64,000 bases of DNA, from positions 6,595 to 70,594 of the forward strand of contig JAGTQM010000008.1 in the NCBI GenBank assembly GCA_018396755.1. Direction: 5' to 3'. Both the position numbers and the translations under genes were made by a program. Positions 2 through 28,283 of this stretch are shown piece after piece. Each line of letters starts with the position of its first letter. Position 1 is the first letter of the stretch. The stretch is from Candidatus Bathyarchaeota archaeon. Lineage in GTDB: Archaea > Thermoproteota > CALKCG01 > B24. The notes under the pieces were generated by a model, which was given only the letters and a program-made list of their open reading frames with translations, was not told the DNA's origin and did no database searches.

Positions 2-427
2 AGACAAGTTGAAGAGCGTTGTTTATCGTTGGGCTTAGAAACGACGTTTCCCAAACCCTTCTGCTCCCTAGAGCCTTCTGAAAATAAACCTATAATCTCA
101 AGATTTGTCGAAGAGCTTGGCGTAGGTAGACCGAAGCTTGAAATATCCCTAGCTAGGAGAAGCGGATATGAAATTATAGAGTATGCAGTTGTCAAACGTA
201 GTGCACCATGCGGTTCAACATGGTACATAGCGAAAAAACTGACGGGTATTGAAACGAAAAGGGAAATCTTATACGACGCCATAGCTAGAGCCCACCACAG
301 CTACCCATGCACGGCAACAATGAACATAGACCCGGAAGAAAAAGAACCCATACTGCATCTAGGAGGATACATAATAAGAGAAGAAGTTGAAAAAGCTATT
401 GAAAAAGCAAAATCTTCTAAAACTTAA
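2..427 (+). CDS. DUF166-like protein, C-terminal part (5' end runs off the window)
   Basis: The frame is open from nt 2, with no stop upstream of the TTG at 29. The Cys motifs RSAPCGSTWYIAKKL and HHSYPCTATM resemble the archaeal DUF166 family from memory only. Confidence 0.4.
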   Translation, partial: RQVEERCLSLGLETTFPKPFCSLEPSENKPIISRFVEELGVGRPKLEISLARRSGYEIIEYAVVKRSAPCGSTWYIAKKLTGIETKREILYDAIARAHHSYPCTATMNIDPEEKEPILHLGGYIIREEVEKAIEKAKSSKT

Positions 428-554
428 ATCCATATATACGGCAAGGCTAAAACTAGAGAATTATTAGAATGTAGAAGCTGAAGCGTATATCCTTCAGTTC
501 AATTACGCACGGTTAGATGCCCTACTAATAGCACCATAGCTTCAAACTAGCAGT

Positions 555-1475
555 CTAAACTTGTCTTATCCTCGAAAGATATCTGAAAGCCGATAAAGCT
601 GCTTTACACCCTTCTCCCGCTGCAACCACTATCTGCTTCTCCGGCACGTTTGTTACATCACCTGCTGCAAAAAGCCCTGGGAAACTGGTTTCACACGTAC
701 AATTAACAATAATTTCACCCCATTGATTCTTCTCCACAAAATCAACTATTTCCGAATTCGGTGTAGATCCCACTTCGATAAAAACTCCTTGAACTGGTAG
801 AAAGAGCTCCTCGCCTTCTTTCAATATTTTCATACCCTTAACCACTTTATCGCCGACTATCTCTAAGACACGTGTACCTGTCCACATGCTAACTCTACTT
901 GAAGTCTTAGCTTTCTCAACAAGTATTGGGTCTGCTTTAAGCTCATGCATAATCTCTATAAGGTATACATTGTTTGCAATCTTCATCAACTGTAAGACCG
1001 CCTCTAAACCAGAATTTCCTCCACCGACAACAGCAACATCTACTCCTCTAAACAACGGTGCATCGCAAGTGGCGCAGTATGAAACACCTCTATTCTTAAA
1101 CTCCCTTTCACCTGGGACATTAAGTTCTCTAGGTCTTCTGCCAGTTGCAACGATAACAGTCCTACTAGAATAGTCACCATTGTCTGTAGTTACGTGGAAA
1201 AACCCATTTTCAAACGAAACCCTAAGGGCCTCCTCTATTCTAAGGTCGAAATTATACTGTTTTAAATGATCGTAAAACTTAGCCGTCAATTCCTCCCCCG
1301 TAATATACTGGAAACCAGTATAGTTTTCAATGGTTGATGAGAACGTAACCTGACCACCCACATTTAATGTTAGAACCAGAAAATCCATCCTCTTGCGGGC
1401 GGCGTATATGGCTGCTGTTATCCCAGCAGGACCAGCACCTACGATTATCAAATCGTAAATACGGTTAAATGTCAT
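555..1475 (-). CDS. trxB: thioredoxin reductase (low-Mr, FAD/NADPH)
   Basis: It has GAGPAG and GGGNSG dinucleotide-binding motifs and the redox-active CATC motif (SYCATCDAPLF). The 306-aa length is typical. Confidence 0.9.
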   Translation of the reverse strand: MTFNRIYDLIIVGAGPAGITAAIYAARKRMDFLVLTLNVGGQVTFSSTIENYTGFQYITGEELTAKFYDHLKQYNFDLRIEEALRVSFENGFFHVTTDNGDYSSRTVIVATGRRPRELNVPGEREFKNRGVSYCATCDAPLFRGVDVAVVGGGNSGLEAVLQLMKIANNVYLIEIMHELKADPILVEKAKTSSRVSMWTGTRVLEIVGDKVVKGMKILKEGEELFLPVQGVFIEVGSTPNSEIVDFVEKNQWGEIIVNCTCETSFPGLFAAGDVTNVPEKQIVVAAGEGCKAALSAFRYLSRIRQV

Positions 1476-1661
1476 TCAAAATTTTCTTAACAATAGCCTC
1501 CTTTATATTTTTCTAGAGGATAAGGCTCTCTTATGCACGCTTCACCTGAGTAAAAAGCATACACGTGGAAGACTACCGCCATCTAAACTATAATAACATT
1601 TAGAGCTAAACATTTTTATGATTAGAATCATCAAAATAATATTTGCACAGAGTGAGTTCTC

Positions 1662-1991
1662 ATGAAAAAGATGATTTACATAGGTAATGCGAAGAAAATA
1701 CCGGTTGGAGAAGCTAGAAAATTCCTCTACCCAGTTGGCGATGAAAAAGGCACTGAGAGACCAGGTTTACTCATACACCTTGAAGAAGGCTTCGTAGCCT
1801 ACGATGGATTATGCACACACATGCAGGCTGAAATTGAATGGAATAGGTATACTGGGAGAATATGGTGCACATTACACGACGGTATGTACGACCCGAAAAC
1901 CGGAAGACCAGTACTCGGACTGCCTAGAGAACCCCTGAAGAGAATAGAGTTAAAGATTGAGGAAAACGGTGAAATTTACGCTCTAACATAA
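1662..1991 (+). CDS. Rieske [2Fe-2S] domain protein
   Basis: It carries the CxH ... CxxH ligand pairs (LCTHMQ and WCTLHDG) in a 109-aa protein. Confidence 0.8.
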   Translation: MKKMIYIGNAKKIPVGEARKFLYPVGDEKGTERPGLLIHLEEGFVAYDGLCTHMQAEIEWNRYTGRIWCTLHDGMYDPKTGRPVLGLPREPLKRIELKIEENGEIYALT

Positions 1992-2025
1992 AAGCATTGA
2001 AAGAATTCCCCCCATTTTCTCCTTT

Positions 2026-2445
2026 TTAAACCCCACATACAGTTTGAACATCTTTTTCTCTAAGCCTCTCAATAAGGTTTAAAACTCTACCTTTTATCAA
2101 ATTCCTCACTTCTCTCGCCTCTTCCAACGGCATTCCCGCAGGGTCTGGAATATTCCACTCCTCGATATATTTGCTGTAAACTACTGGGCATAAAGAACCA
2201 CTACATACGATTACAGCCATGTAAGCATTTTCCTGAAGCTCTCTAGTCATAAGTTGAGGCTTCTTACGGCTTATATCAATCCCCTCTTCAAGCATAAGCT
2301 TCACAGCATTCGGATGAACGCTTTCAGCTGGAGTTAAACCTGCACTTACAGCCCTCCACCCCTCCGGCGCATACACATTAAAATATGCTTCAGCAATCTG
2401 ACTTCTAAAACTATTCTCAACACAGATGAAAAGCACAATCCTCAA
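2026..2445 (-). CDS. arsC: arsenate reductase / LMW protein-tyrosine-phosphatase family (thioredoxin-coupled type)
   Basis: It has the CX5R P-loop CVENSFRS and a downstream Cys pair (VCSGSLCP). The ORF-track start at 2529 overlaps the next gene. A TTG at 2445 preceded by GGTGA gives MRIVLFICVENS and a typical 139-aa length. Confidence 0.8.
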   Translation of the reverse strand: MRIVLFICVENSFRSQIAEAYFNVYAPEGWRAVSAGLTPAESVHPNAVKLMLEEGIDISRKKPQLMTRELQENAYMAVIVCSGSLCPVVYSKYIEEWNIPDPAGMPLEEAREVRNLIKGRVLNLIERLREKDVQTVCGV

Positions 2446-2522
2446 TTGCAAATCACCTAAAATATCTAACTTGGACTTAGACTTTATAAGGTTTAAGAAA
2501 TAAAAATATTTAAGGTGAAATC

Positions 2523-3065
2523 GTGCCACCGCATTGTGATACTATGGATGGGCCGGTTGTTACAGCCGCTAAAAAGGCTTTGGAAACGGGAAATGTTAAC
2601 CTCATTCTTCCCTGGGTGCCGAAGAAAGCTGAAGAGGAGTTGAAGAAGGCTTTTGAAAAGACTCTTCAAGTGAGAAAACTGGGTCAAGAAGCAGCTGAGC
2701 TTGCAGACTACTGGTTTTTTGAAACAGCCGTACGGTTGCATAGAGAAGGTGAGGGAGCACCTTATACTGGGCTTAAGCCAGCTGGGTTGGATTGGGGTCC
2801 AATAGTGCCACGTGCAGAAAAAGCTATTGAAAAAGGAAACCCAAAAGAAGTTATAGATTTTATTGTGCACACTGTTGAAGAGGAACTGCAGAGAAGATTT
2901 AAACATGCTATGGAGAAGAAGAAATATGATGTGAACGATGTGTATGCTGCAAGAGAATACGTACAAGCAATGCTCGGCTTCATCTTATATGCACACCATC
3001 TATACGAGTTTATGAAGGGTGGAAAAGTGCACGGCGAAGAAGGAATAGGTGAACACCAGCTGTAG
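2523..3065 (+). CDS. conserved hypothetical protein with an N-terminal PHCDTMDGPVV motif (DUF6448-like from memory)
   Basis: This is a 180-aa ORF with a GTG start. The mature N-terminus is P-P-H-C-D, followed by a helical FFETAVRLHREGEGAPYTGLKP region. Coding-like composition dominates the two antisense ORFs. Confidence 0.5.
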   Translation: MPPHCDTMDGPVVTAAKKALETGNVNLILPWVPKKAEEELKKAFEKTLQVRKLGQEAAELADYWFFETAVRLHREGEGAPYTGLKPAGLDWGPIVPRAEKAIEKGNPKEVIDFIVHTVEEELQRRFKHAMEKKKYDVNDVYAAREYVQAMLGFILYAHHLYEFMKGGKVHGEEGIGEHQL

Positions 3066-3275
3066 AGCAACAATGGAAGAATAACTAGTAGAAAGCTGAA
3101 ATTAAACAAAATAAAAAAGTGGGTTTATGACAATATTTATTTAGAATTAGTTCTCCTAGTTAAGGAAACCTTAGATCAAGCTGTTTTAACGGAATTAGCG
3201 AGGATTGGCAACTTTATCTGTTCGCCCGAATATATTCGGGAAAAATTTAATTAGATATAACTCTGTTATATCAAT

Positions 3276-4058
3276 ATGGTGATTAAAGTGATAGGTAAAG
3301 AAGAGTTGAAAAAGATTCTCAGAGAGTTGAAGTCAGAGGAAGATTTAGCTAGAGTTGAAGAGGAAGCGCGTCTATTCTTACGAAATATAGACCCGGAAAC
3401 ACTATCTATCGTTGAGCAAGAGCTCTTAGAGGAAGGCTTAAACCCCGAAGATTTAAGGAGGCTCTGCGAAATACACTTAAAAGCCATCACGATTAAAAGA
3501 GAAGAACCTGAAATTGGAGGAGAACATCCAATAGGCATACTTAAGGCTGAGCATAAAATCATATTAGACAACATCAAAATATTAGAGGAGATAGCTAGTA
3601 AAGTCAAATCCAACGTAGGCTTAGAGCAATTGAATGAAGAGTTTAAGAAGCTAGAGTCAGTAGTAGCACTACTGCTTGAAGCTGAAAGCCACCATCAAAG
3701 GGAGGAGGAAGCGCTATTCCCACGTTTAGAGAAGCAGGGAATTACTGGACCGCCAAGTGTTATGAGGATAGAGCATGAAGACTTAAGAGTTAAGAAGAAG
3801 GCTCTTAAAAGACTTTTGGATGAGCGTGCCACATTAGACCATAACTACTTAGCTGATAATGTGTATGAGTTAGGCAACTATATCGTTTCAACCCTAAGAG
3901 ACCACATATACAAAGAAGACAACATACTATACCCACTATCTCTAACAACAATACCTGAAAATGAGTGGCGTAAAATCAGAGAGGAATTTGACGTTATTGG
4001 ATACTGCTGCTTTACCCCAGGAATTAAAGCCTTAGGGGAGCACCGCCATGAAGTATGA
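3276..4058 (+). CDS. DUF438 / hemerythrin-like metal-binding domain protein
   Basis: Hemerythrin HHE-type His/Glu motifs are present (HPIGILKAEHK, ESHHQREEEALFP, MRIEHEDL, LRDHIYKEDNILYP). Confidence 0.75.
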   Translation: MVIKVIGKEELKKILRELKSEEDLARVEEEARLFLRNIDPETLSIVEQELLEEGLNPEDLRRLCEIHLKAITIKREEPEIGGEHPIGILKAEHKIILDNIKILEEIASKVKSNVGLEQLNEEFKKLESVVALLLEAESHHQREEEALFPRLEKQGITGPPSVMRIEHEDLRVKKKALKRLLDERATLDHNYLADNVYELGNYIVSTLRDHIYKEDNILYPLSLTTIPENEWRKIREEFDVIGYCCFTPGIKALGEHRHEV

Positions 4059-4293
4059 AAAACAGTCTACTATGGGCGATTATCTAATTGGTGATGGAAT
4101 ATTCACGGTTAGTAAAGAGGGAAACAGAGTAATCATCAAACTATATGCATGGTCGAAAAGGAGAGGAAAAGAGATAATTCATCTACTCGATAGTAGAAGC
4201 GGCACAGAGATACACATATATGACAGAGGATATATCTACGGAGAGAATGATGAAGATAAAGCTGAAATAGCGCAATCCTTTGCCAATATATGA
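4048..4293 (+). CDS. hypothetical protein (81 aa)
   Basis: An ATG overlaps the upstream gene's end by 11 nt, which suggests translational coupling. No motif was recognised. Confidence 0.4.
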   Translation: MKYEKQSTMGDYLIGDGIFTVSKEGNRVIIKLYAWSKRRGKEIIHLLDSRSGTEIHIYDRGYIYGENDEDKAEIAQSFANI

Positions 4294-4306
4294 AGCAAGT
4301 AGTTTT

Positions 4307-4942
4307 TCACAAATATTCGAAGTAGTATTCTAAGAGCCGTCTTATCCCTCTCCTCATCCTCTCAGAAAGCGTTGAAGAGCTTATTCCAAGCTTACGTGAA
4401 ATATCCGATATAGTCGATTTTTTAGGATAATCGAAGAAACCCATCTCTAAAGCTATCCGTAAAGCCATCTCCTGCTTCTCAGTTAAGACTAAACCCCTCC
4501 CTCTGAACCTCTCTATTCCTAGTATTTTTAGCTCAAAACCAAGCTCCTCTAAAGTTGAAACTATATCTTGCACCATTCTCGTGTTGGGGGAAACAAATGT
4601 GTAGACAAGTCTATTACTTTCCACACTCCATGCCGTCGCCAGAAAAGCACCCTTTAAAACAATAGTGTTACATACGTCACATCCATCAGATTCAAACCAT
4701 GCGATAGATTCCCTCCCTAACTTAATACTACTCCGCATCCTCACATTACTACGTTTTAGAATATTGACGGATTGTTTTACTGGTATTCTCACTAGATGCC
4801 TAGTAACACCATGCGGTAAACGCCTAATGTCAACTACTCTAAACTGGTGAACCCCTAAATCTTTAAATAGCTTCAGCACTTTACACTGTTCATTTACTAT
4901 TTCAATAGAAGTACGGTAGGGGAATTTTTCTCTATAAGCCAT
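4307..4942 (-). CDS. transcriptional regulator with C-terminal HTH_10 (bacterio-opsin-activator-type) domain
   Basis: The C-terminus LTEKQEMALRIALEMGFFDYPKKSTISDISRKLGISSSTLSERMRRG matches the archaeal HTH_10 pattern. Confidence 0.7.
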   Translation of the reverse strand: MAYREKFPYRTSIEIVNEQCKVLKLFKDLGVHQFRVVDIRRLPHGVTRHLVRIPVKQSVNILKRSNVRMRSSIKLGRESIAWFESDGCDVCNTIVLKGAFLATAWSVESNRLVYTFVSPNTRMVQDIVSTLEELGFELKILGIERFRGRGLVLTEKQEMALRIALEMGFFDYPKKSTISDISRKLGISSSTLSERMRRGIRRLLEYYFEYL

Positions 4943-5135
4943 TTTTCAACCTCCTCTAAATACTAACACCTCTTTCGATCTTCTTCACATCGTACTTCTA
5001 CTTAAAAATAAGATGGATTGAAAATCTAAGGAAATGTTTACATACCAAATCCAACATTAACGTTTCTATAGGTATTGCCACATGTCAAACACTATCGATA
5101 GGAGTAAGATTGAGACTATAAAAAAGAGGAATCCA

Positions 5136-5297
5136 TTATTTCATTTGAATAGCGTGCTTAGTAATTTCTAGCGAACATGAACGATATTTGGAGCAGAACT
5201 CCTCACATCTCTCAGCCCAGCTCCTCTCTTTATAGGCAAGTCCACATTCCTCACAAATATAGAAAGTCTCATTTTCTCTCCTCTCCTCCTTCACCAT
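5136..5297 (-). CDS. small Cys-rich zinc-ribbon-like protein (53 aa), absent from the ORF track
   Basis: My hand translation is MVKEERRENETFYICEECGLAYKERSWAERCEEFCSKYRSCSLEITKHAIQMK. It has a CxxC ... CxxxC arrangement and an ATG start. It is the only coding-like stretch in a 600-bp gap. Confidence 0.5.
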   Translation of the reverse strand: MVKEERRENETFYICEECGLAYKERSWAERCEEFCSKYRSCSLEITKHAIQMK

Positions 5298-5549
5298 TAT
5301 TACCTCAGCCTCCCATTAATTAAGTGGCTTCTAAAGTCAAATATTTTGTGTTTTCAAGACCATCTTTAGGGACGTTCGTATTTTATGCTAATCCCAAATT
5401 TCTCCAGTTAGATTATGAGGAAGATTGTTTACGATTATGGTAGAGTTAAGCTAGGGAATTGGGATAGTGAGGTTTTCTGTTCATCGATTTTAACCTTAAC
5501 TTATTTTTGGTATCTAGACGCTGGTTAGAAATTTATGGAAGTTTTACGT

Positions 5550-6743
5550 TTAAAAGCCTTCACTTCTCTTAATTCTACTGGCTAAAGACTTACCTATTTC
5601 AACGATTTTCCTCATGTCTTCTTCCATTGGTGGTCCATTGATTTCAACCGTGCTAACAACTTCAATTTTGAAGTCTCTAAGTAGTTCCTGTATCTGTCGT
5701 ATTGCACCTCCACTCCAGCCGTAAGAGCTTAAGACGACCGTGAACTCTGTCGGTGGGCGTAGTATCCTGAAAAGGTATGTGGCGTAAACAATTAGAGGAT
5801 GTGCTCCTCCTAGAACTGCTGGCACACCTAAAACTATAGCCCTTGAATCAACGAGGTCTTTAACTAAATCTCCAACATCGGTCACCGTTAAATTGTGAAG
5901 GACAACTTCAATACCTTCTCTAGCAAGCACTTCAGCCATCTGTTCAGCCATATGCTCAGTACTACCCCACATACTCACATAGATTATTGACACTTTTTGC
6001 TTAGTTTCACCATACACCCACCTCTTATAAGCGTTTAGAATCACCTCAGGCTTCCTATGAATAGGCCCATGACTTGGAGCTATCGTTTTAACGTCTAAGC
6101 CCTTCAGCTTCTCCAATCCCTTCTGCGCCATGGTTCTGAAAGGCATCATTATCTCACCCCAGTACTTCTGAGCATGAATAAGCAAATCTTCAACATCATC
6201 ACTGTAAACCCCTTCAGCTAAGTGAGAGCCAAAGAAATCGCATGAAAAAAGTATTCCCTCCTCCTCAACGTAGGTAAACATCGTCTCAGGCCAGTGAAGC
6301 ATAGGCGCTTCTATGAAACGTAGAGTTTTCCCACCAAGGCTCAACTTCTCTTGATCGGTAACAATCTTCATCCTCTCCTCTGGAACACGGTAGAAGATTC
6401 GAGCCATTTTCACACCTCTACTTGTTGCTACAAGCTTAGCCTTCGTAGCGATCTTCATCAAATATGGTATGGCACCAGCGTGATCCGGCTCAGCATGATT
6501 CATTACAATGTAGTCTATTTCCCCAGGATCTACTAGACTACGGATCTTCCTTTCAAGCTCCTCCTCGAAACCAGGGTTTACCGTATCTATTAACGCATTC
6601 CCCTCTTCCCCCGACACAAGATACGCATTGTAAGAAGTCCCCCTTGGAAGAGGAATCAATGCATCGAAAAGCCTACGATTCCAGTCTTTCACACCAATCC
6701 AGTAAACGTCTCTGGAGATTCTAACCACGTTCCCCTCAAACAT
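5550..6743 (-). CDS. fprA: flavodiiron protein (metallo-beta-lactamase-like + flavodoxin domains)
   Basis: It has the di-iron motif HAEPDHAG, GTSYNAYLV, and a C-terminal flavodoxin domain (IIYVSMWGSTEHMAE). The first 50 codons of the ORF track look non-coding. The ATG at 6743 (MFEGNVVRISRDVYWIG) is preceded by GGTGG, and the ATG at 6761 is an alternative. Confidence 0.85.
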   Translation of the reverse strand: MFEGNVVRISRDVYWIGVKDWNRRLFDALIPLPRGTSYNAYLVSGEEGNALIDTVNPGFEEELERKIRSLVDPGEIDYIVMNHAEPDHAGAIPYLMKIATKAKLVATSRGVKMARIFYRVPEERMKIVTDQEKLSLGGKTLRFIEAPMLHWPETMFTYVEEEGILFSCDFFGSHLAEGVYSDDVEDLLIHAQKYWGEIMMPFRTMAQKGLEKLKGLDVKTIAPSHGPIHRKPEVILNAYKRWVYGETKQKVSIIYVSMWGSTEHMAEQMAEVLAREGIEVVLHNLTVTDVGDLVKDLVDSRAIVLGVPAVLGGAHPLIVYATYLFRILRPPTEFTVVLSSYGWSGGAIRQIQELLRDFKIEVVSTVEINGPPMEEDMRKIVEIGKSLASRIKRSEGF

Positions 6744-7042
6744 ATAACCACCACCGCTCATTATAATCAGCAAAACAAAATATAAATGTGGCTTAATATA
6801 CGCAGACGGTGAACTGAAGAAGACAGTTATAGATGGAGGAGAGATAAACATCTTCTTTAAAGAACCTCTAATAGCTGGAAGCGTAACTTGCAAAAAGTGA
6901 GTATGGAAGAAAACCAGTAAAAACCTGATAGTACGTACGGTAAATGTTATAGTGGTAGATGAGTTGAAGACGCTTGCTAAGGGAAATCGCCTAATTCGAC
7001 AGTTTCGGAATAGAAGGGTTTAAATATTGGTAAGTATGGAAA

Positions 7043-7168
7043 ATGTTGATGGTTGAAAGGCTCTATACGGTCAAGGAGACGAAGAAGCTTCTCGATGTTA
7101 CCACATGGACTATTCAGCAATGGGATAGTCCATGTGCTGACATACCAATACTTAGCTCAGAACCCTAA
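7043..7168 (+). pseudogene. remnant of a MerR/excisionase-type HTH, as found at the N-terminus of IS607-family serine recombinases
   Basis: My hand translation is MLMVERLYTVKETKKLLDVTTWTIQQWDSPCADIPILSSEP*. The LY.vKE...LL.V...TiQ.WD pattern is present, but no recombinase catalytic domain follows. Confidence 0.35.
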
Positions 7169-7656
7169 GCGGTAGACCTTTTAATCTTCGGAAGTATTTC
7201 AAACGTAAATTTGGCTATTTGATCTTTTGTAAGTCCATATTCTCCATTCAATTTGCTTATTTTACCTTGTTTAAACATGGATGCTAGCGTATTGTAGACT
7301 GTTTTCAAGGCTTTGCCTGTTGTTTTAGCGAGTTCAGATGGCGTCATTGTTTCCTTCCCGAGTTTTCCAAATCTGAAGCCCAAGTAGGCACCTACTAGAC
7401 TTAAGATTATAGAATCCTCAGCCGCTAAATCAGTTCTCTTAAGGACTACACCGTTATCCGTTATGAGGAGGAGGTCTGAACACTCCCGGATAAGACTATC
7501 TACGTTAGGCTCGAAAACTATTTTTGAGACAGCCTCATAAGATGGGTAGACTTTAGAAAGCCATTCGAAGAAAGCCTTTAGAACAGCGTCAGGTTCGCCT
7601 TTGAAAGCCGCCTCTATAGAGCCTATTTTAACGTTTACCTCGATACTACTCAACAC
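7165..7656 (-). CDS. paralog 3 of an unnamed family (N-terminal beta-beta-alpha module + C-terminal winged helix)
   Basis: It aligns along its whole length with the 7646..8143 product. A GTG at 7656 gives (M)LSSIEVNVKIGSIEAAFKGEPDAVLKAFFEWLSKVYP, collinear with MSVVKVKVSFEGGEFEFSGDVEQVLRSLIKFISDVYP. This start overlaps the upstream stop by 11 nt. Confidence 0.6.
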   Translation of the reverse strand: MLSSIEVNVKIGSIEAAFKGEPDAVLKAFFEWLSKVYPSYEAVSKIVFEPNVDSLIRECSDLLLITDNGVVLKRTDLAAEDSIILSLVGAYLGFRFGKLGKETMTPSELAKTTGKALKTVYNTLASMFKQGKISKLNGEYGLTKDQIAKFTFEILPKIKRSTA

Positions 7657-8143
7657 GTTCACCTCTAAGTCTAGGTGCAACTTCACCTATGAAGTACTTC
7701 AACCCTTTTGAAGTAACCCTATACTCCCCCCTCTCCACCTTCTCAACAAGATAGCTGTTTTGAAGCTCACTAAGCCTAGCACTTATACTGCTTTTAGACC
7801 TTCCCAGTCTTCCAGAAATCTCCTCAAGCGAAAGCGAAGGCTTATCAGATTTACCGAAGAGATACGCGAGATACTTAACGATTAAAACTAGGAGACAGCC
7901 TTCATAAATAGTCAACTTCTTCATATCTGCTAAGACGGTAGGCTCTGGATGTACAGCGATCAAATCCTTTAAACCCTTGGAAACCTCCTCTAAATCCAAG
8001 CTTAAAGTTAAATTTCTTACAAGGCTGAAAGTCGGATAAACATCTGATATAAACTTGATAAGGCTTCTTAAAACCTGCTCAACATCACCTGAAAACTCGA
8101 ATTCACCGCCTTCAAATGAAACTTTAACCTTAACCACACTCAT
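7646..8143 (-). CDS. paralog 2 of the same family (beta-beta-alpha + wHTH)
   Basis: The C-terminal pattern is wHTH-like (SLEEISGRLGRSKSSISARLSELQNSYLVEKVERGEYRVTSKG). An ATGA overlap joins it to the upstream gene. Confidence 0.65.
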   Translation of the reverse strand: MSVVKVKVSFEGGEFEFSGDVEQVLRSLIKFISDVYPTFSLVRNLTLSLDLEEVSKGLKDLIAVHPEPTVLADMKKLTIYEGCLLVLIVKYLAYLFGKSDKPSLSLEEISGRLGRSKSSISARLSELQNSYLVEKVERGEYRVTSKGLKYFIGEVAPRLRGERVE

Positions 8144-8688
8144 AGTATCCCCCCTCTAATTTTCGGAATAATCGTCTTCTCAACCCACATCTGACCTTGA
8201 GCTGAAAGCTTCCACACAGCATCCTTCTGATCAGGCTTGAAAACCCTACCTGAATCAGCCATCTCCTTAAGCCTAGCCGATACGTTTGAAACCTTAATAC
8301 CTGAATTCTGCAAAAGTAGCGCTATAGTTTTAGGGTCAGCCTTCTGCTCTTTAAACGCGTAGAGAAGCAATCCTATAGCCTCATAATGGCTTAACTTAGC
8401 CTTCTCAGAAGCTACTATCAAAGGACCATCAACACCCCACTCTACAACGCCTTCTAAAACATTAGATGTTTGTATACCTTTTTCAGCAACGTCAAAATGC
8501 CTCAATCTTAAAGGCTGAAAATCCTCCGAAGTCAACCCGCTTTTAAGCAGTTCTCTAAAATCCATTGAAGAAGTCTCCTCTAAAGCAGTTTTAACAAGGT
8601 TGAGTTTTTCACGTAGCTCTTCAACGGTTGAAAACTCAAACTCTAAAGAACCGAACCAAGACCGGAAAATAGCTTTAACTCTACTCAT
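8140..8688 (-). CDS. paralog 1 of the same family (beta-beta-alpha + wHTH), more divergent
   Basis: The N-terminus is MSRVKAIFRSWFGSLEFEFSTVEELREKL. The C-terminus is TIALLLQNSGIKVSNVSARLKEMADSGRVFKPD...WKLSAQG...IIPKI. It is the first gene of a three-gene operon. Confidence 0.65.
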   Translation of the reverse strand: MSRVKAIFRSWFGSLEFEFSTVEELREKLNLVKTALEETSSMDFRELLKSGLTSEDFQPLRLRHFDVAEKGIQTSNVLEGVVEWGVDGPLIVASEKAKLSHYEAIGLLLYAFKEQKADPKTIALLLQNSGIKVSNVSARLKEMADSGRVFKPDQKDAVWKLSAQGQMWVEKTIIPKIRGGIL

Positions 8689-8793
8689 ACTAGTAGAAAA
8701 AATTAGATAAACCAGTATATAAATTTATTTAAATTATCCTTTAAATTCCCATATCTAAAAACACTTACCATAGTTTTCACCATGATTTTCCAC

Positions 8794-8866
8794 GGATAAA
8801 GTCATGTGATAGAAATTTTAGGAAAAAACTAGGAAAAATTTATAGAAATTGTCCATGACTTTATCC
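8794..8866. promoter_or_regulatory. 13-bp perfect inverted repeat (GGATAAAGTCATG / CATGACTTTATCC) separated by 47 bp, with internal direct repeats
   Basis: The arms lie at 8794-8806 and 8854-8866. An ATAGAAATT direct repeat and AGGAAAAA x2 lie between them. The repeat sits in the 220-bp gap between the paralog genes. Confidence 0.3.
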
Positions 8867-8909
8867 ATAATATAGTTAATATTTCCTCCTTTGAATACTA
8901 GTGGAAAAC

Positions 8910-9320
8910 TCACAAACTTGGAGGCTTTTTCTGAAAGTACACGTATCTACCCTTCCTCCCACCTCTATGCAGTATATCGCTTCTAACTAAGTCTGCTAAA
9001 GTATGGGCTACAGCTGTCCTATCGTAGTGGAAGCCACGTTTACTAAGCTCTTCATGAACATCGCCGAGCGTTCTCCCAGTATTAAACCACCCAGCCTTCC
9101 AAAGATTAAGCAAAACACCTCTACAGGTCGATGGAATAGACTCTTTAATTTCCTCGGATTCAAGCTTACTGAACTCCCTATCAGGTAGAGAAAGGCTTTG
9201 AAATGCGCTTAGAAACTCTTCAACCGCCTTCTTAACTTGTTCTTCTCCACATTCTATCTCCGCTTCAACCCCTTGATACTTCAACTTTATCCTAACTCTT
9301 CTATCAGATTCCATATCCAA
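8910..9320 (-). CDS. paralog 4 (short form, 136 aa) of the beta-beta-alpha + wHTH family, divergent from nurA
   Basis: The N-terminus is RRVRIKLKYQGVEAEIECGEEQVKKAVEEFLSAF. The C-terminal wHTH-like part is TLGDVHEELSKRGFHYDRTAVAHTLADLVRSDILHRGGRKGRYVY. Confidence 0.65.
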   Translation of the reverse strand: MDMESDRRVRIKLKYQGVEAEIECGEEQVKKAVEEFLSAFQSLSLPDREFSKLESEEIKESIPSTCRGVLLNLWKAGWFNTGRTLGDVHEELSKRGFHYDRTAVAHTLADLVRSDILHRGGRKGRYVYFQKKPPSL

Positions 9321-9327
9321 TCACTTT

Positions 9328-9345
9328 GTTGATTGAACAATCAAC
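9328..9345. promoter_or_regulatory. 18-bp perfect palindrome GTTGATTGAACAATCAAC in the divergent promoter region
   Basis: I read it directly. It lies in the 72-bp gap between the paralog-4 start (9320) and the nurA start (9393), just upstream of a TTATAA box. Confidence 0.45.
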
Positions 9346-9392
9346 AACAACACTTATAAGGGAGTTCATCCTACATATAGATTGGTGATTGC

Positions 9393-10541
9393 ATGGATAT
9401 AAACATTTCCCCCTCAACAAACAACTCTCAAGAAGACTCTCAAAACCTCCCGTGGCTTAAAGAAATGCCCTACGTAAAACTCTACCAAGAACTCGTTGAC
9501 ACAGGTACTGAACTACTCCTCAACAGGCTTAAAGCATACAGGAGAGAGGTCTACAAACTTATAGAAGAAGTCAAAGACAGATTGAAGATCTACGAGGCTG
9601 TTTACGACAAAAATGGACCAGCTTCATCTAGAATCGTCGGAGTAGACGCTGGGAGAAACGGTACTGAGTACAAATTCGCATACATACCTCTATACGGTGC
9701 TATAGCGGTTTTAGTTGAAAACTGGGAGATCATAGATGAACCGCTATGTGTAACAGGGCCGCCAGACGTATGGGCTTCAGAGCTAGACCCAGATAAACGT
9801 GAAAGCCTCTTACACATGGCTTTAGAATATCACGTCGCCAGTAGAGCCGTAGAGAAGTGGAAGCCAGACTATCTTCTACTTGACGGGGGGATAGTGCTCA
9901 ACCCTAAGCTCTACCCAGACTTTCAAGCTTCACCACAATACGAGGGAGACTTCTACTTCACAGTCATAACAGTACTTGAACTTTTAAATACATGTAGGAA
10001 ACTCCACGTTCCAGTTTTAGGCTTTGTGAAACGTACACATATGAACTTCTACTCTTCATTCACAAAGAACAGCCAAATTAGAGATTCAATGCTGATGAAC
10101 TTCATTCTTAAAAATGGCGAATACTCTGAACCGTTCAGAGTTGAAAACGTGGTGACAGAATCCTATAGGGCTATCGCTGAAAGCCTAAGGTACGATAGAA
10201 GCCTACCAGCCATATACTCCAGCTACATTAAAACAGGCTCAGCCCCTTTTAGAGTAGAAGTCCCAATGTTCTGTTTAAATAAACTTAGAGAGTTGATGTC
10301 AGTCATCTACACAATGGCGGGCTTCGACGGCATCCCATACCCCATACATGAAGCAGATAGACTTTCCAGGATAACCCGACCAACGTCAAACATACACTCC
10401 CTAGTCCTCTACTCTAAAGCCCTAGAACTTGTTGAAAACGGAGAGATGGAGCTTAAAGACTTAGACCTACTACTGCTTGAATACGGTGAAGACTGGACGT
10501 TAAACAGAAACCTTGAAGATTTTAGAGGTGGCAATGTTTGA
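9393..10541 (+). CDS. nurA: NurA-family 5'-3' nuclease
   Basis: NurA-domain pattern is present (VGVDAGRN, LLLDGGIVLNP, GFVKRT, and a C-terminal EADRLSR). It overlaps herA by 4 nt (TTGA). Confidence 0.8.
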   Translation: MDINISPSTNNSQEDSQNLPWLKEMPYVKLYQELVDTGTELLLNRLKAYRREVYKLIEEVKDRLKIYEAVYDKNGPASSRIVGVDAGRNGTEYKFAYIPLYGAIAVLVENWEIIDEPLCVTGPPDVWASELDPDKRESLLHMALEYHVASRAVEKWKPDYLLLDGGIVLNPKLYPDFQASPQYEGDFYFTVITVLELLNTCRKLHVPVLGFVKRTHMNFYSSFTKNSQIRDSMLMNFILKNGEYSEPFRVENVVTESYRAIAESLRYDRSLPAIYSSYIKTGSAPFRVEVPMFCLNKLRELMSVIYTMAGFDGIPYPIHEADRLSRITRPTSNIHSLVLYSKALELVENGEMELKDLDLLLLEYGEDWTLNRNLEDFRGGNV

Positions 10542-13500
10542 AGCAGATAGGCTACGTACTATCCGGCTGCGACCAGAGCAGAATATCCTTTGTAGTTATG
10601 GAGGATTCCAAAGTCTACGTAAACAACTACTACTTCATAAACCACCCTTCAAGCTTATCTGGAGAATTCAACCCAGTTCTACTGAGAGTATACAAGATCA
10701 CACCCTACAACCCTGAAATGACGATAGGAAGCTTCGGACCGATAGCAGGTAAGAAAGGTGAAAAAGCATACTACGGTAAAAAGCTCGAGTATTTAGTAGC
10801 TTGGGCTGAAGTTTTAGGATACATATCTTGGGATGGCAAATGGAGGAGGCTTGAATGCAGCCCCAACACTTGGGACTTAGTATACGAACCTACTTACGAA
10901 GAACTTGAAGGATTCTTCATAAAACTATCAAGCAAAAATCTAAGCGATAGAGCAGACTTCTCAATAGCCATAGGTAGACACAGAGGATTAAACATACCCT
11001 TCCACTTAGATCTAAACGCCATAGCAAAAGGGCATATTTTCGTCGCTGGAATGAGCGTTGATTACGCGGAGCCGTTAATTTACATGGTTAACGGTATAAT
11101 CCACATAGAGAAGATCGGGGAATTTGTTGACAGGTTCTTCGCAGATGACTCTGAAGGCTCTATTCCAGTTGAGGGAGTATATATTCCAAGCTTCAACCCT
11201 GAAACTTATGAAGTTGGCTGGCGACCCGTGGCGGAGGTGATCCGCCACAGGTATGCTGGGGTTCTTGTAAGAATATTTACTGAAACTGGAAGATCCATAA
11301 CCGTTACCCCAGGTCATTCGGTCTTCGTACTGAGAGATGGTGAAGTTTCAACTATTCCAGCTTCCGAGATACGTGTTGGAGACTATCTCGTCGCCCCATC
11401 TGAAATCCCTATGGGGTCCAGACCTGTAACTGAAATAGATATCTTAGAAGTTCTTGGAAATTCAAGTGATAACAGAAGTATATATCTCCATAACGTCCCT
11501 GAAAGCGTTTATGAGAGGTTTGACGAGGACAATTTATGGTTTAAAGGCGATCGTGGTTTACGCTTGAGATGGCGTAGAAAAAAGATACTGCCCATAAGAT
11601 ACGCTAGACTTCTAATGTTTGAGGAGAAGACGAGTATTAAAATCGCTGCTAGAAGGGGTATAGAAATTCCGGCAATAATTAAGGTAGATGAAGAATTTGC
11701 GCGTTTAATGGGTTACTACGTGGCTAAGGGAAACACTAGGGCAAATAAAGGTAGAAGCTATAATGTAGTCTTTAACTTAGGCTTGAATGACCTAGACATA
11801 ATTGAGGATATACGTAGGATCATCAGCAGATTAACCGTCAATACTAAGGTTAGCGTTATTAAGAACAGTTCAAGTTATAGAATTATTATATACGATAAAG
11901 TTTTGACGCTTCTCTTCAGGAATCTAGCACCTGGAAATGCTAGGAATAAACGCGTTCCTTGGATTATTCTAAACTCCAAGCCTGAAGTAATGCTAGAGTT
12001 CATCAAAGCCTGGGTCATGGGAGACTCCGGTGTTACCGCAAGTAGATGGTTAGCTTCGGACGTACAGTACCTGTTCTTAACCCTCGGTATTTTAGCATCT
12101 TTTTCTACCCAAAAAATTCACAACGGTAAGCTTCCGAATGGTAGAAGATGCGTAGATACATCATGGTACAATTTAAAGCTTCCATATCTAACTACCAATG
12201 TCCCCAGTATTATGAAGACAGACCGGAGACTCAACAACCTTAAACTAATACCAGTTAGCTGTTTACCAAGTTTAATAAGAAACTTCAGCTACTACTATTC
12301 GAAATGTAGAGTTACAGAAAGCATCCTCAAGAAAATCGATAGATTAAACGATTACCTTCAGACAATTTCAAAAGGCGATGCTGAATTAAAAACCAGGTCA
12401 AAAGCAGCTAATGACGGGTTATATCGATTTCTACTAGGTTCAGGATTCGCAAATAAAAATGGACAGAGACTTATATTAACGAATAAAGGATATGAACTTC
12501 TTGAAGAAATAGATAGCCTTATCAAACTGTCTAATGGAAGGCTTTCATTCCTCAAGGTCGTTCGAGTTGAAACGGTAAAATCCACGCATGAATTCGTCTA
12601 CGATTTGTCAGTACCTGGTCATGAAAATTTCGTAGCTGGCTTTGGAGGAGTCTTCTGCCACAATACACGTAGCGGTAAGAGTACTTTTGTCTTAAACCTT
12701 ATAGCTAGAGCTCTTGAAAGCGATTTGAAGCCTAGGTTTGTAATATTTGATAGGAGGTGTGAATATTCTCTCTTATCAAAATACGGAGCTACAGTATTCT
12801 CATACCTCAGTTTCATACCTAAAACTGAGCTTATCTCCCCAAGCCTTGTAGCGTCTAGGCTTGGCTTAGACCCGAATAAGGCTGAAGGGAAGCTTCTATG
12901 TGAAGCTTTAAACTCTATAAAAGCTGATGGCTCCGATTTAACGGCTAAAAACCTGCTTAGGAGATGCGTAGAACTCTCCCCATACTTGGTTTCGAGAAGT
13001 AGAGATTCAGTTCTATCTAAAATTAGATGGGTTCTTGAGAGGCGTGGAGAATCCATATTCACGGAGGAGCATAAGCCTCTAAACATCGTGGAAACGCTTT
13101 ACGATAAACCAGCTGTAATCGTAGACTTCTCAGTTGACGCTAATATAGAAGACCAGCAGCTTACAGCCAAATACTTGATACGTGAAGTCGTAAACCACGC
13201 TATAAAATGTAGAACTACAGGAGACTTTGCCACAGTATTCGTAATAGAAGAAGCACAGTACTTCGTACCTGAGAAGGGTCTCAAAATAGAAGTTGGAAAT
13301 CCGGAGAAAACAGGAGTAGATAAACAGATAATAGAAGCAATAAGCCAAGCCGGAGGATACAACGTAGGCTTTATAATAGTTACCCAGAGACCTGCTTACA
13401 TTTCGAAGTCGATAATATCACAATGTAATACAATAGCGGCCTTCAGACTTATGGCTGGCAACGACCAGGAAGCAATCATAAAATACTCTGAATATGGAAG

Positions 13501-13693
13501 TGAAAGGATGAGTGACTATTTACCGGGATTAGCAGACCATGAAGCCCTCATATGGGGTATGGCGTCTCCAGTACCATTCCCAGTCACGGTAGAAATAGAC
13601 GTTAAAGACTACCCGTCTAAAACAGGAGTGACAGCTAAAGTATCATGGGAGAGGATGAAGATTAAAACCTCCAGCCTTAAAATCCAACATTAG
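10538..13693 (+). CDS. herA: HerA-family (DUF87/FtsK-like) hexameric ATPase, interrupted by an intein in the Walker A loop
   Basis: The N-terminus is HAS-barrel-like. Walker A is split as VAGM|intein|TRSGKST. Walker B is VFVIEEAQYF, followed by GFIIVTQRPAYISKSIISQCNT. The extein is 514 aa, a normal HerA size. Confidence 0.85.
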   Translation: MKQIGYVLSGCDQSRISFVVMEDSKVYVNNYYFINHPSSLSGEFNPVLLRVYKITPYNPEMTIGSFGPIAGKKGEKAYYGKKLEYLVAWAEVLGYISWDGKWRRLECSPNTWDLVYEPTYEELEGFFIKLSSKNLSDRADFSIAIGRHRGLNIPFHLDLNAIAKGHIFVAGMSVDYAEPLIYMVNGIIHIEKIGEFVDRFFADDSEGSIPVEGVYIPSFNPETYEVGWRPVAEVIRHRYAGVLVRIFTETGRSITVTPGHSVFVLRDGEVSTIPASEIRVGDYLVAPSEIPMGSRPVTEIDILEVLGNSSDNRSIYLHNVPESVYERFDEDNLWFKGDRGLRLRWRRKKILPIRYARLLMFEEKTSIKIAARRGIEIPAIIKVDEEFARLMGYYVAKGNTRANKGRSYNVVFNLGLNDLDIIEDIRRIISRLTVNTKVSVIKNSSSYRIIIYDKVLTLLFRNLAPGNARNKRVPWIILNSKPEVMLEFIKAWVMGDSGVTASRWLASDVQYLFLTLGILASFSTQKIHNGKLPNGRRCVDTSWYNLKLPYLTTNVPSIMKTDRRLNNLKLIPVSCLPSLIRNFSYYYSKCRVTESILKKIDRLNDYLQTISKGDAELKTRSKAANDGLYRFLLGSGFANKNGQRLILTNKGYELLEEIDSLIKLSNGRLSFLKVVRVETVKSTHEFVYDLSVPGHENFVAGFGGVFCHNTRSGKSTFVLNLIARALESDLKPRFVIFDRRCEYSLLSKYGATVFSYLSFIPKTELISPSLVASRLGLDPNKAEGKLLCEALNSIKADGSDLTAKNLLRRCVELSPYLVSRSRDSVLSKIRWVLERRGESIFTEEHKPLNIVETLYDKPAVIVDFSVDANIEDQQLTAKYLIREVVNHAIKCRTTGDFATVFVIEEAQYFVPEKGLKIEVGNPEKTGVDKQIIEAISQAGGYNVGFIIVTQRPAYISKSIISQCNTIAAFRLMAGNDQEAIIKYSEYGSERMSDYLPGLADHEALIWGMASPVPFPVTVEIDVKDYPSKTGVTAKVSWERMKIKTSSLKIQH
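11054..12664 (+). mobile_element. intein (537 aa) with LAGLIDADG homing-endonuclease domain
   Basis: Ser1 is in SVDYAEPLIY, block B is TVTPGHSV, and the LAGLIDADG-like motifs are LMGYYVAKGN and FIKAWVMGDSG. Blocks F and G are EFVYDLSVPGHENFVAG and GGVFCHN, followed by a +1 Thr. Removing the intein restores GMTRSGKST. Confidence 0.85.
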
Positions 13694-27090: not shown

Positions 27091-28283
27091 CTCAAATACA
27101 CTCCTAAAGTATCTTCTTCTTTGAGTATACCCCCTTTAACCCAAGCCTTCTCAAGCTTCATAAGCTCCTCTGCAAATACGGGGTCTTCTACGGCAACTTC
27201 CCTAGCATATGTGTACAACCCTCTATCAAAACCGTTCATAAGCTTGCTGAGTATAAGCCACTGTCTCCTATTAACCCTTTCATCTATCTTCACTCTTTCA
27301 CGCATCAGCAATTCCCTAATATCGTTTAGAAGACTTCTAGTCTTGATAAGACTCATCCTGTGTGGGAAGACCCATAGCGCAAGCGAAAGCACATCGTCTT
27401 GGCTGACTTTACCTTCAAGCCAAATCTTAGCCTTAACGAGCTGCGTTAAGACTATTGTAGATCTCTCACTAGGCGGGTCTTTTATATTGCTACACACGTC
27501 TCTAAGAAAATGACATCCTTCGCACAGTATCGGAGGCTTCACTTCGGAATGCTCCCTACCCCTTACACACGCTTGAAAATCTCTAACCAGCATATTGATA
27601 AGCCCTATGGTTTCACTGTCAAGTTCAACTTCATCCACTTCCTTCCTTATGCTTTGAAGCTCTTCAAATGTGAGGACTTGAGGCATGGATTCTACAAGTT
27701 CCCCTTCGTAGCTATCCAGAAGCGATTGAAGCTTAAACTTATCGCTTAAACTCAGGGATTTCAAGTATATGCATATGTCGAATCTATCGTAGAACGGAGG
27801 TGGATGTATAAAAGTCGTCGGATCGGCCGGGTTCTCATTGGCTATGAGAATGTAATCTCCAACTTTAACCCGCTGTCCATACGCCCATACTTCACCGAAC
27901 TGCATCATATGGTGAATGTTGGAGGTTGTATACGGGTTTAATCTATTGACTTCATCTATACCCTTGCCTTTAGCATTTACAAATGTAGCCCATAGAACTT
28001 TTTCAACCCCCTCTTTTTCAAGTGAAGGTATGTGAAGTCTACCTACAACCTCCCCACGTTTAACCTCTGAAGCGCCAGATATCACTACGTGGTCTTCCCC
28101 AGTTATTCCTCTAAGTATTAGAAGCATAAGCGTGGATTTTCCAACACCTCTCTGAGCCCTTATGAGGGTTGAGCTTCTCCTGTGAAGCTGATTCAATATA
28201 GCTATATCCACTACTTCTTCGTTCCCCACGAACCTAGAATTTACCTCTTCTCTAAGCTTTAAAACAGATTTTTTAAGACTCAA
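27081..28283 (-). CDS. MoxR-like AAA+ ATPase with a Cys-rich C-terminal extension
   Basis: Walker A is QRGVGKST, Walker B is GIDEVNRL, and the sensor region is ILIANENP ... PPPFYDRFD. A Cys cluster follows (C-x16-CEGCHFLRDVC). Confidence 0.8.
   Translation of the reverse strand: MSLKKSVLKLREEVNSRFVGNEEVVDIAILNQLHRRSSTLIRAQRGVGKSTLMLLILRGITGEDHVVISGASEVKRGEVVGRLHIPSLEKEGVEKVLWATFVNAKGKGIDEVNRLNPYTTSNIHHMMQFGEVWAYGQRVKVGDYILIANENPADPTTFIHPPPFYDRFDICIYLKSLSLSDKFKLQSLLDSYEGELVESMPQVLTFEELQSIRKEVDEVELDSETIGLINMLVRDFQACVRGREHSEVKPPILCEGCHFLRDVCSNIKDPPSERSTIVLTQLVKAKIWLEGKVSQDDVLSLALWVFPHRMSLIKTRSLLNDIRELLMRERVKIDERVNRRQWLILSKLMNGFDRGLYTYAREVAVEDPVFAEELMKLEKAWVKGGILKEEDTLGVYLRWR

Follow-up and report, generated by a model that had tools for sequence, protein, structure and literature searches.

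How the archaeal nuclease-translocase pair NurA-HerA is directed to its substrate, and whether dedicated DNA-binding partners take part, is the question raised by a locus in a 64,000-nucleotide stretch of a Candidatus Bathyarchaeota archaeon genome (GenBank assembly GCA_018396755.1, contig JAGTQM010000008.1, positions 6,595 to 70,594; hereafter the window), in which four small genes, here P1 to P4, lie beside nurA and herA. The canonical archaeal HerA-NurA end-resection complex has the composition HerA6-NurA2, and its genes are usually in an operon with those for Mre11 and Rad50. HerA-NurA is the leading candidate for the enzyme that resects DNA ends in archaea, and its targeting and restraint are an acknowledged open question. 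The T. kodakarensis complex, reported in 2026, cuts both strands whatever the structure of the end, and its regulation is poorly understood (PMC12977600). In this study, we find that P1 to P4 are paralogues, judged by sequence profiles, and that together with NurA and HerA they very probably constitute one conserved functional module. We give a probability of roughly 0.5 to the reading that P1, P2 and P3 form a hetero-oligomeric unit acting with NurA-HerA, while P4, or the set as a whole, autoregulates through an operator beside nurA. The NurA-HerA system itself is of a known kind; the conserved accessory family of small proteins is new and apparently undescribed, as the literature searched held no published account of small winged helix-turn-helix (wHTH) paralogues with NurA-HerA, an earlier mention in Iyer et al. 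2004 being possible. Bathyarchaeia, which are widespread, abundant and uncultivated, would on this evidence keep a dedicated set of DNA-binding paralogues with one particular NurA-HerA subtype.

Four small paralogues beside nurA and herA

The open reading frames (ORFs) of P1 to P4 are all present on the minus strand of the window, and three of them are coupled between 8688 and 7165, as described in an earlier note made from the letters of this DNA. P3 (8140-8688, 182 amino acids (aa)), a P3-type protein and the first gene of the P3-P2-P1 operon, ends in an ATGA overlap (8140-8143) with the start of P2 (7646-8143, 165 aa), a core family member, whose stop is in turn overlapped by the start of P1 (7165-7656, 163 aa) by 11 nt (7646-7656). 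The TTG start of P1 at 7656, one of two start codons corrected here, was set from orthologues: a Shine-Dalgarno-like GAGGTGA lies 6 nt upstream of it, and the orthologues in a related locus (L005) and in Bathyarchaeota archaeon B24 start at the matching 'LS.IEV'. The fourth gene was likewise correctly placed on the minus strand, whereas its start, first put at a TTG at 9320, moves to an ATG at 9314 in the orthologue alignment, leaving P4 at 8910-9314 (134 aa) with the beginning MESDR, which is also that of L005, the B24 counterpart beginning MENRK. A 221-bp spacer separates P4 from P3, and a 78-bp spacer lies between P4 and nurA, which diverge; P4 is, to judge from this layout, transcribed separately from P3-P2-P1 and divergently from nurA.

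The kinship of the four proteins had been proposed by eye, and it was upheld by BLASTP, by a family hidden Markov model (HMM) and by jackhmmer, with pairwise strength that is uneven. P1 and P2 match over their full length (BLASTP E=1e-15, hhalign P=1e-15), P2 and P3 over the C-terminal ~100 residues only (BLASTP E=3e-6), and the pairwise matches of P4 are marginal (E=0.006 and 0.02). Against the family HMM, for which only P1/P2-type sequences were used, P1 and P2 score E~1e-56; it finds P3 at E=1e-6 (HMM positions 59-165) and P4 at E=6e-4, through the N-terminal module and the recognition helix, and P3-like proteins from other loci match it over their full length (E~1e-9). When 4,070 ORFs from all fetched loci were searched with jackhmmer, queries started from P3 or P4 reached the P1/P2 set, with 71/72 and 71/71 hits in common. 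Superfamily profiles match exactly four of the 148 ORFs in the window, namely P1 to P4, a result that is partly circular because the profiles contain the window's own sequences. On profile evidence P1 to P4 are paralogues, and the matter is settled. They are also separable as types, P1 for example scoring 358 bits against the P1-type HMM and 62 against the P2-type HMM.

An AlphaFold2 model of P2, built from a 32-sequence alignment, has a mean predicted local distance difference test (pLDDT) score of 88.6 and a predicted template modelling (pTM) score of 0.69; an earlier model from eight sequences had a pLDDT of 73.7 and was weak at residues 38-67. The model begins with a beta-beta-alpha module (beta 4-10, beta 13-19, alpha 21-35, pLDDT ~90), followed by a low-confidence linker (38-49), a helix (51-57) and a beta-hairpin (62-70), and ends in an extended wHTH (79-159) made of helices 79-95, 106-113 and 117-129, a wing (133-143) and a last helix (145-159). 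Helices 106-113 and 117-129 with strands 133-137 and 140-143, all at pLDDT >90, give the core of the winged-helix superfamily. The architecture that the earlier note had drawn from the letters, beta-beta-alpha plus winged helix, is therefore present in the P2 model, while the N-terminal part is larger than that note had it. P1, P2 and P3 carry the middle helix and beta-hairpin before the wHTH; P4 is without this middle part and is the minimal member of the family, with a beta-beta-alpha module, a linker and the wHTH. Two residues, G19 and P37 in P2 numbering, are invariant in the alignment of 32 members (A4).

The N-terminal ~78 residues gave no match in Pfam, NCBIfam, PADLOC, PDB sequences, PDB folds or BFVD, in agreement with the suspicion that this module belongs to no named family; with no PDB-sequence, Foldseek or curated-family match, it is therefore a region without a detectable relative in the libraries searched. 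The C-terminal half drew generic wHTH matches only, all of them sub-threshold in Pfam, NCBIfam and PADLOC (HTH_24 17.7 bits against a cutoff of 21.9, MarR_2 16.3 against 27, TrmB 14.5 against 25.6), and no named wHTH regulator family of Pfam or NCBIfam reached its curated cutoff for P1 to P4. Across the 32 members of A4, Pfam matches at E<=0.01 were an assortment of generic wHTH families, the commonest being HVO_A0261_N in 14 members. The family profile aligned with PDB sequences at positions ~80-165 only (CooA, IdeR, MarR, SmtB, AspA, Lrs14). Foldseek with the P2 model returned nothing at E<=1e-3 from PDB or BFVD, and its tight superpositions cover the wHTH only, with IdeR over 72 columns at 2.3 A and with AspA over 90 columns at 2.9 A; MarR chains extend over ~145 columns but at a root-mean-square deviation of 12-13 A, helices 79-95 and 145-159 being the flanking helices of P2. 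Profile and structure searches thus ended in sub-threshold, generic wHTH matches, and not in the ordinary, well characterised regulator family that would have spoken against the note's proposal of a novel group.

A module kept with NurA and HerA

The adjacent nuclease-translocase pair had been read as nurA-herA, and Pfam confirms it. The nurA gene (9393-10541, plus strand, 382 aa) matches the NurA family at E=1.5e-16 (61.1 bits, cutoff 21), and D85 and D164, which an alignment of eight NurA sequences shows to be conserved in seven or more, may lie at the metal site. The herA gene (10538-13693, plus strand) overlaps nurA by 4 nt and encodes a 1051-aa precursor, 514 aa when spliced, with Pfam matches to DUF87 (31.7 bits, cutoff 23.2), Intein_splicing and LAGLIDADG_3. 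Its intein (11054-12664, plus strand, 537 aa), a LAGLIDADG intein with matches in both Pfam and NCBIfam and with boundaries taken from intein-less orthologues, is inserted at the HerA P-loop (GM/S...HN/TRSGKST, slashes marking the junctions), a position that is free of intein in the closest relatives, L005 and B24. Splicing restores the P-loop GMTRSGKST; the spliced protein has the Walker B motif 'VFVIEEAQ' and shares 79 % identity with the HerA of Bathyarchaeota archaeon B24, which has no intein. The NCBIfam equivalog models for HerA and NurA (NF040819, NF040937, NF041033) were missed, HerA scoring 39 and 32 bits against 970 and 800, and NurA 20.5 against 400 for NurA_Sulf; by sequence, the NurA and HerA of the window are divergent subtypes and not characterised orthologues. 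In the GTDB scan, several further archaeal HerA genes also have the length to accommodate an intein, those of L046, L064 and L069 and those of L049 and L062, where HerA has ~850 aa.

The small genes accompany this pair far beyond the window. Every stand-alone family member sampled by context adjoins NurA and HerA. When the GTDB species genomes were scanned from HerA, 56 archaeal and 24 bacterial loci came up, which were sorted on a neighbour-joining tree of the ATPase domain; in the window's own Bathyarchaeia HerA clade, called type A, all 11 loci with enough contig carry three to four family genes, and in the four type-A loci that lack them the contig breaks off at NurA or HerA. Small genes were found in 0/43 of the other archaeal loci (sister type B, Korarchaeia, other Thermoproteota) and in 0/24 of the bacterial ones, and a single metagenome-assembled genome (MAG) holds both situations, a pair with small genes (L022) and a pair without (L038). 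A second HerA clade, only 18-20 % identical to type A and comprising at least 2,948 proteins at E<=1e-20, is also from Bathyarchaeia, according to the names on the HerA matches, and also has small genes; three of three spot checks in it, picked independently of the small genes, have family genes upstream of NurA-HerA. Scanning metagenomes from the P3 side yielded 55 loci, in which, counting only where the flank suffices, P3 is accompanied by P2/P1 in 38/39, by NurA in 20/22 and by HerA in 17/18. The linkage is strong but not absolute, the two exceptions being L100 and L107. The clustering on which the earlier note had staked its proposal, both among the paralogues and beside nurA-herA, recurs in two deep HerA clades and in two arrangements, which makes it very probable that the region is one conserved functional module.

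The sister type-B loci (L028, L029, L032-L034, L036) often have two tandem NurA genes, L032 contains a second HerA-sized ORF of 496 aa, and in the two type-B pairs checked (L032, L035) HerA is followed by a gene for a calcineurin-like metallophosphoesterase; type B is a different accessory solution for the sister NurA-HerA subtype.

Within the module the small genes are of distinct kinds, as type HMMs show each of the P1, P2, P3 and P4 types to be conserved in both HerA clades. The usual order, all on one strand, is P3->P2->P1(->P4)->NurA->HerA, with the small genes overlapping or abutting one another; in the window's lineage they face away from nurA and the linkage is retained. The recognition helices are type-specific across the clades ('GTVAGRLSEL' in P2, 'KxxKTVRNxL' in P1, 'GFGARLSEM' in P3), and the signatures in the window are 'KALKTVYNTL' for P1 and 'EAIGLLLY...SARLKEM' for P3. 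Variants of the set include P3-P1-P4 (L009, L012, L153), a tandem P3-type pair (L118 and others) and P2-P1 only (L152). The largest, L151 (region 57-11455 of a 2.2-Mb metagenomic contig), has six family genes, of P4, P3, P2, P4, P3 and P4 types, upstream of NurA-HerA, with an unrelated 303-aa ORF among them.

The family as a whole counts 407 representatives at 50 % clustering and E<=1e-3 in exhaustive HMMER searches (144 at E<=1e-10), most of them 160-175 aa long and matching over their full length; this overturned the impression of a tiny family given by a word-indexed search with P2 alone (7 matches). Its members are annotated as 'hypothetical protein' or generically as 'ArsR family regulator'. 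Named members and named HerA partners are all from Bathyarchaeia or unclassified Thermoproteota, apart from two records with bacterial bin labels, and a scan of viral contigs found no family relatives. The two records, L040 (DATKLC010000096.1, 'Krumholzibacteriaceae bacterium') and P0235 ('Candidatus Acidoferrum sp.'), have a Bathyarchaeia-type HerA nested in archaeal clades and are probably mis-binned archaeal contigs in bacterial MAGs.

Some members are fused to other domains. One protein (P0009) joins a protein kinase, a P2-type module (138 bits against 68 for the other type) and a P1-type module (118 against 79), and this fusion, in the order of the genes, is a Rosetta-stone hint of a P2-P1 pair. 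In two others (P0063, P0084) the family module comes after an N-terminal domain that bears a PD-(D/E)xK-like motif, and in P0067 a family module precedes DUF488. At locus L014, a ResIII/ERCC3 (XPB-like) helicase lies between two modules, one of the P1/2 type and one of the P3 type, which both carry an additional fused domain, so that the same pair of module types there accompanies a different motor. The genes of this locus (1082-5592) encode a 145-aa wHTH protein, a 173-aa protein, P0063 (PD-(D/E)xK-like plus P1/P2-type), the helicase and the P3-type fusion, whose partner is a ~170-aa 'FVIMPF...NPNVFYELG' domain; the L014 module looks like a conflict-system relative of the family.

Candidate operators and the proposed action of the small proteins

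The spacer between P4 and nurA contains a candidate operator, the perfect 10+2+10 palindrome TTGTTGATTG-NN-CAATCAACAA (9326-9347), situated between a TATA-like box and the P4 start. It is unique in the window (0 expected in shuffles) and falls in a 40-nt stretch with 100 % identity to B24, though the P2 protein of B24 is only ~62 % identical, and exact copies are found in the same place in L001-L008, L016-L018 and L020. A third copy of the half-site, TTGGTGATTG (9382-9391, plus strand), abuts the nurA start codon and is conserved in B24 and L005; altogether the half-site TTGNTGATTG has three copies in the window, all within 9326-9391, where 0.63 are expected. The TATA-like element CTTATAAG (9353-9360), itself palindromic and unchanged between the window, L005 and B24, may act for both of the divergent promoters. 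Related sites lie by the TATA box in sister lineages, as TTGTTGA-N4-TCAACAA in L044, L047 and L064 and as a tandem GTTGATTG in L023. For co-directional operons, we took seven loci, counted TACGT/ACGTA over the 120 nt that precede the first small gene, and found 17 against 1.04 expected (P=2e-15), with the motif in 5/7 loci and the motif class common to operons of both HerA clades. The conservation of the recognition helices had been considered as an argument against sequence-specific binding, and this shared motif class weakened it. P4 has two recognition-helix subtypes that track gene arrangement and operator class, and P4 would therefore be the best candidate for an operator-binding autoregulator; given the conserved operator at the P4/nurA promoter, at least one member, most likely P4, is probably also a classical autoregulator. 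The small proteins define a protein family and an N-terminal module that are both new, and the locus offers a candidate operator for archaeal genetics.

A separate promoter may drive the P3-P2-P1 operon, since a TATA-like box, TTTATATA (8716-8723, minus strand), read ~32 nt upstream of the P3 ATG, would imply a short or absent leader; the block TTATATAC...TCTAA...TACTAG.ATG before P3 is conserved in B24. Further upstream in the P4-P3 spacer, a 13-nt perfect inverted repeat, GGATAAAGTCATG / CATGACTTTATCC (8794-8806 and 8854-8866), flanks T-runs and has an RNA fold z-score of -4.2. Relatives keep only the outer GGATAAA/TTTATCC, and the inner stem is not conserved in L017 and L018, for which reason we do not call the repeat an RNA element; an Rfam scan of 6800-9500 gave nothing. 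The repeat may be a pair of protein-binding sites or an element flanking a terminator.

Operators of this kind raise the possibility that P1 to P4 are only transcription factors, that is, a multi-input set of homodimeric wHTH repressors or activators of nurA-herA and of their own genes that make no contact with the enzymes. Their wHTH is closest to regulators of the MarR, IdeR, ArsR and Crp types, with weak matches to MarR_2, HTH_24, TrmB, SmtB, IdeR and CooA and with a helix-wHTH-helix in the C-terminal ~85 residues of P2; P4 divergent from nurA is a classic regulator layout, the palindrome between them is conserved, TACGT is enriched at the other operons, palindromes at one's own promoter are shared with the MarR/ArsR/IdeR regulators, and trios occur without adjacent NurA-HerA. 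Unlike those regulators, however, P1 to P4 have an extra N-terminal region of ~78 residues, a conserved module without counterpart in known regulators, and they occur as fixed sets tied to enzymes. Regulators of a two-gene operon would not usually be kept as three to four types in a fixed order across 18-20 % HerA identity, the recognition helices stay type-specific while the promoter motifs of the lineages differ, and the P2/P1 fusion, along with the nuclease-like, kinase and DUF488 fusions, suggests the role of an adaptor. We regard a purely regulatory role, the main rival reading, as somewhat unlikely; were it true, the family would still be new among regulators and unusual in its multi-paralogue architecture, though of narrower interest.

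The reading that we favor is that of a hetero-oligomeric unit acting with NurA-HerA, for which the conserved types, the fixed order, the tight packing of the genes and the fusion give indirect support over independent regulators. The module would combine a specialised NurA and HerA with ancient paralogues that are non-redundant and number three to four (range two to six). P3, P2 and P1 would be made in roughly equal amounts from the coupled operon and would come together as a DNA-binding hetero-oligomer, held by the wHTH helices, the exposed beta-beta-alpha modules or both. This unit would serve as the recognition, loading or gating subunit of NurA-HerA, setting where or when an otherwise indiscriminate enzyme engages DNA. 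P4, alone or with others, would bind the palindrome beside nurA, which overlaps P4's own start region, and so bring about autoregulation. If the small proteins are indeed subunits or gatekeepers, they would provide an experimental handle on the control of a motor-nuclease of the HerA/FtsK class.

Several observations weigh against this reading. The copy number ranges from two to six, which is less tidy than a complex of fixed stoichiometry. An unrelated wHTH gene of ~230 aa on the other strand takes the place of P3 in L044, L047 and L064. Real P3-P2-P1 trios occur with metabolic or ribosomal neighbors and no adjacent NurA-HerA (L100, L107), and many closely related NurA-HerA pairs occur without small genes; NurA-HerA in general therefore does not require the small proteins. 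P1 to P4 are only mildly basic (isoelectric point 7.8-8.9), and the conserved operators mean that at least part of the role is ordinary transcriptional control. The paralogy, the predicted fold, the fusion and the conservation of types, order, linkage and cis-elements are established here; we infer the protein-protein contacts, as well as DNA binding, the identity of the operator-binding paralogue and the effect on NurA-HerA.

The ~230-aa protein is conserved, with an N-terminal wHTH and no Pfam family (L044:4304-5008, L047:4270-4953, L023:5511-6206; plus strand). Its gene runs on the opposite strand and separates the P4-type gene from the remaining small genes; L023 has it as an additional gene. 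In L100 (253-4080), P3-P2-P1 is followed directly by a gene for a DHODB-type oxidoreductase, such as follows HerA in L010 (6339-12078), L011 and L152, and it looks as if NurA-HerA had been deleted or moved from L100 while the small genes stayed.

A more specific and tentative form of the hetero-oligomeric reading, in itself rather unlikely, is that P1 to P3, with or without P4, make up a winged-helix 'reader' on HerA6-NurA2 that matches three non-equivalent HerA positions, with trans-acting control of the FtsK-gamma/KOPS type or of the chi type, which HerA-NurA has until now seemed to be without. As a matter of speculation, these three positions would arise where a two-fold NurA dimer sits on a six-fold HerA ring, and the reader would load, orient or gate the nuclease-translocase at particular sites or structures in DNA. 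In FtsK, three gamma winged helices read one KOPS site, loading and orienting the motor. The likeness is that winged helices are associated with a hexameric translocase of the HerA/FtsK superfamily, an analogy for which homology is not claimed; unlike gamma, which is a single type fused to the motor, the winged helices of the window are free-standing paralogues, and no genome-wide site for them has come to light. If true, the model would add a new class of accessory subunit for archaeal end processing and answer how the indiscriminate HerA-NurA is controlled.

Another rival is a role in chromosome or plasmid segregation, in which AspA-like, site-specific adaptors direct HerA as a DNA pump, an archaeal counterpart of FtsK-gamma/KOPS loading, with NurA secondary. 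AspA, a centromere-binding protein, is the adaptor that connects a DNA site with a machine containing a motor. AspA of the Sulfolobus plasmid pNOB8 (PDB 4rs8, 5k1y), a small archaeal wHTH protein, is the best compact superposition on the P2 wHTH (90 columns as given above, template modelling score 0.75 on the target) and is matched in sequence at E=0.0024; HerA and FtsK belong to one superfamily, and archaea are without FtsK (discussed in PMC12977600). Yet the AspA match is that of a generic extended wHTH and is weak (Foldseek E=9e-3), and AspA itself, at 84-98 aa, has no beta-beta-alpha module and has ParB and ParA as partners, not NurA and HerA. No ParA or ParB genes are nearby, NurA is linked as tightly as HerA (20/22 vs 17/18), and repeated cis-sites are found solely at the module's own promoter. 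A segregation pump is accordingly a highly improbable explanation.

Repair, defence and the surrounding genes

The earlier note had left it open whether the locus is a DNA-processing or a defence-type module; a conserved module with NurA-HerA was found, and its context argues against a typical defence island. The other large genes of the window are metabolic or housekeeping, and the flanks are syntenic between related genomes. Among the large ORFs of the window there are no Mre11/Rad50 genes (no Metallophos, no SMC_N) and no defence or mobile-element genes, and no integrase, transposase or defence genes lie beside the window module and most related loci. In L151, HerA is followed downstream on the same strand by RmuC, by an Mre11-like metallophosphoesterase of 399 aa and by an SMC_N/Rad50-like gene; in L013, RadA and NucS are close by. 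The housekeeping context, L151 and L013 therefore favor a role in chromosomal DNA repair or maintenance over a mobile defence island.

A canonical HerA-NurA system is resembled in the NurA nuclease and HerA/DUF87 ATPase, in the overlap of their genes, in the motifs that are intact after splicing and, in the related L151, in the RmuC, Mre11-like and Rad50-like genes downstream. It is departed from in that the 64-kb window is without mre11/rad50 and that the partners are instead two to six small wHTH paralogues, whose genes mark one NurA-HerA subtype, the sister subtype being without them.

Antiviral or anti-plasmid defence, in which the wHTH paralogues would sense or mark foreign DNA that NurA-HerA then degrades, was rejected on genomic context as the leading explanation and is kept as an improbable rival. 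A HerA-nuclease pair with several wHTH modules recurs in DndFGH and in 'HerA/FtsK capture' systems (PMC10853773), an antiviral role has been suggested for NurA-HerA (PMC12977600), the L014 variant is fused to nuclease-like and other domains of a sort typical of conflict systems, the presence of the small genes is patchy among related NurA-HerA pairs, and there are weak partial matches to anti-phage HerA models. These matches are far from the families concerned: the window HerA scores 54-55 bits with NCBIfam HerA_antiphage, where the cutoffs of the anti-phage equivalogs are 800-850, and in PADLOC it is matched partially, over the C-terminal ~145 residues (best 77.5 bits), with no PADLOC model for NurA and weak wHTH matches only for the small proteins. 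None of the anti-phage partners Sir2 and DUF4297 is near the window HerA. The stable, syntenic housekeeping and metabolic flanks, in which no defence, integrase or transposase genes were seen, the lack of relatives on viral contigs, and the link of L151 to RmuC, Mre11-like and Rad50-like genes likewise speak against defence.

The likeness to DndFGH is thematic only. DndFGH-type systems combine a HerA/FtsK-class translocase, a nuclease and winged helices, among them a triple-wHTH DndG, which are proposed to localise the apparatus on target DNA, and NurA is unmentioned in the paper that describes them (PMC10853773). The shared theme is thus a HerA/FtsK translocase, a nuclease and several wHTH modules. 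Unlike DndFGH, the window has NurA as its nuclease and not a restriction-endonuclease fold, a stand-alone HerA with no DndH-like fusion, winged helices that are separate paralogues, each with a unique N-terminal module, and a context that is chromosomal and housekeeping, not mobile or defence. No Dnd family match and no sequence kinship with DndG were found in Pfam, NCBIfam or PADLOC.

Elsewhere in the window, three further features were seen, all on the minus strand. A 1065-aa ORF at 57930-61127 has no Pfam family at E<=1e-5. At 25330-28283 lies an overlapping gene pair, 400 aa followed by 586 aa, again with no Pfam match at that threshold; B24 has the pair in synteny (L001 genes 1-809 and 800-2557), with a weak AAA_5 mark on the first gene, and the two form an uncharacterised ATPase-partner pair. 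A 106-nt transfer RNA (tRNA) at 44561-44666, found by Rfam (47.7 bits) and not reported by ARAGORN, is probably an intron-containing archaeal tRNA.

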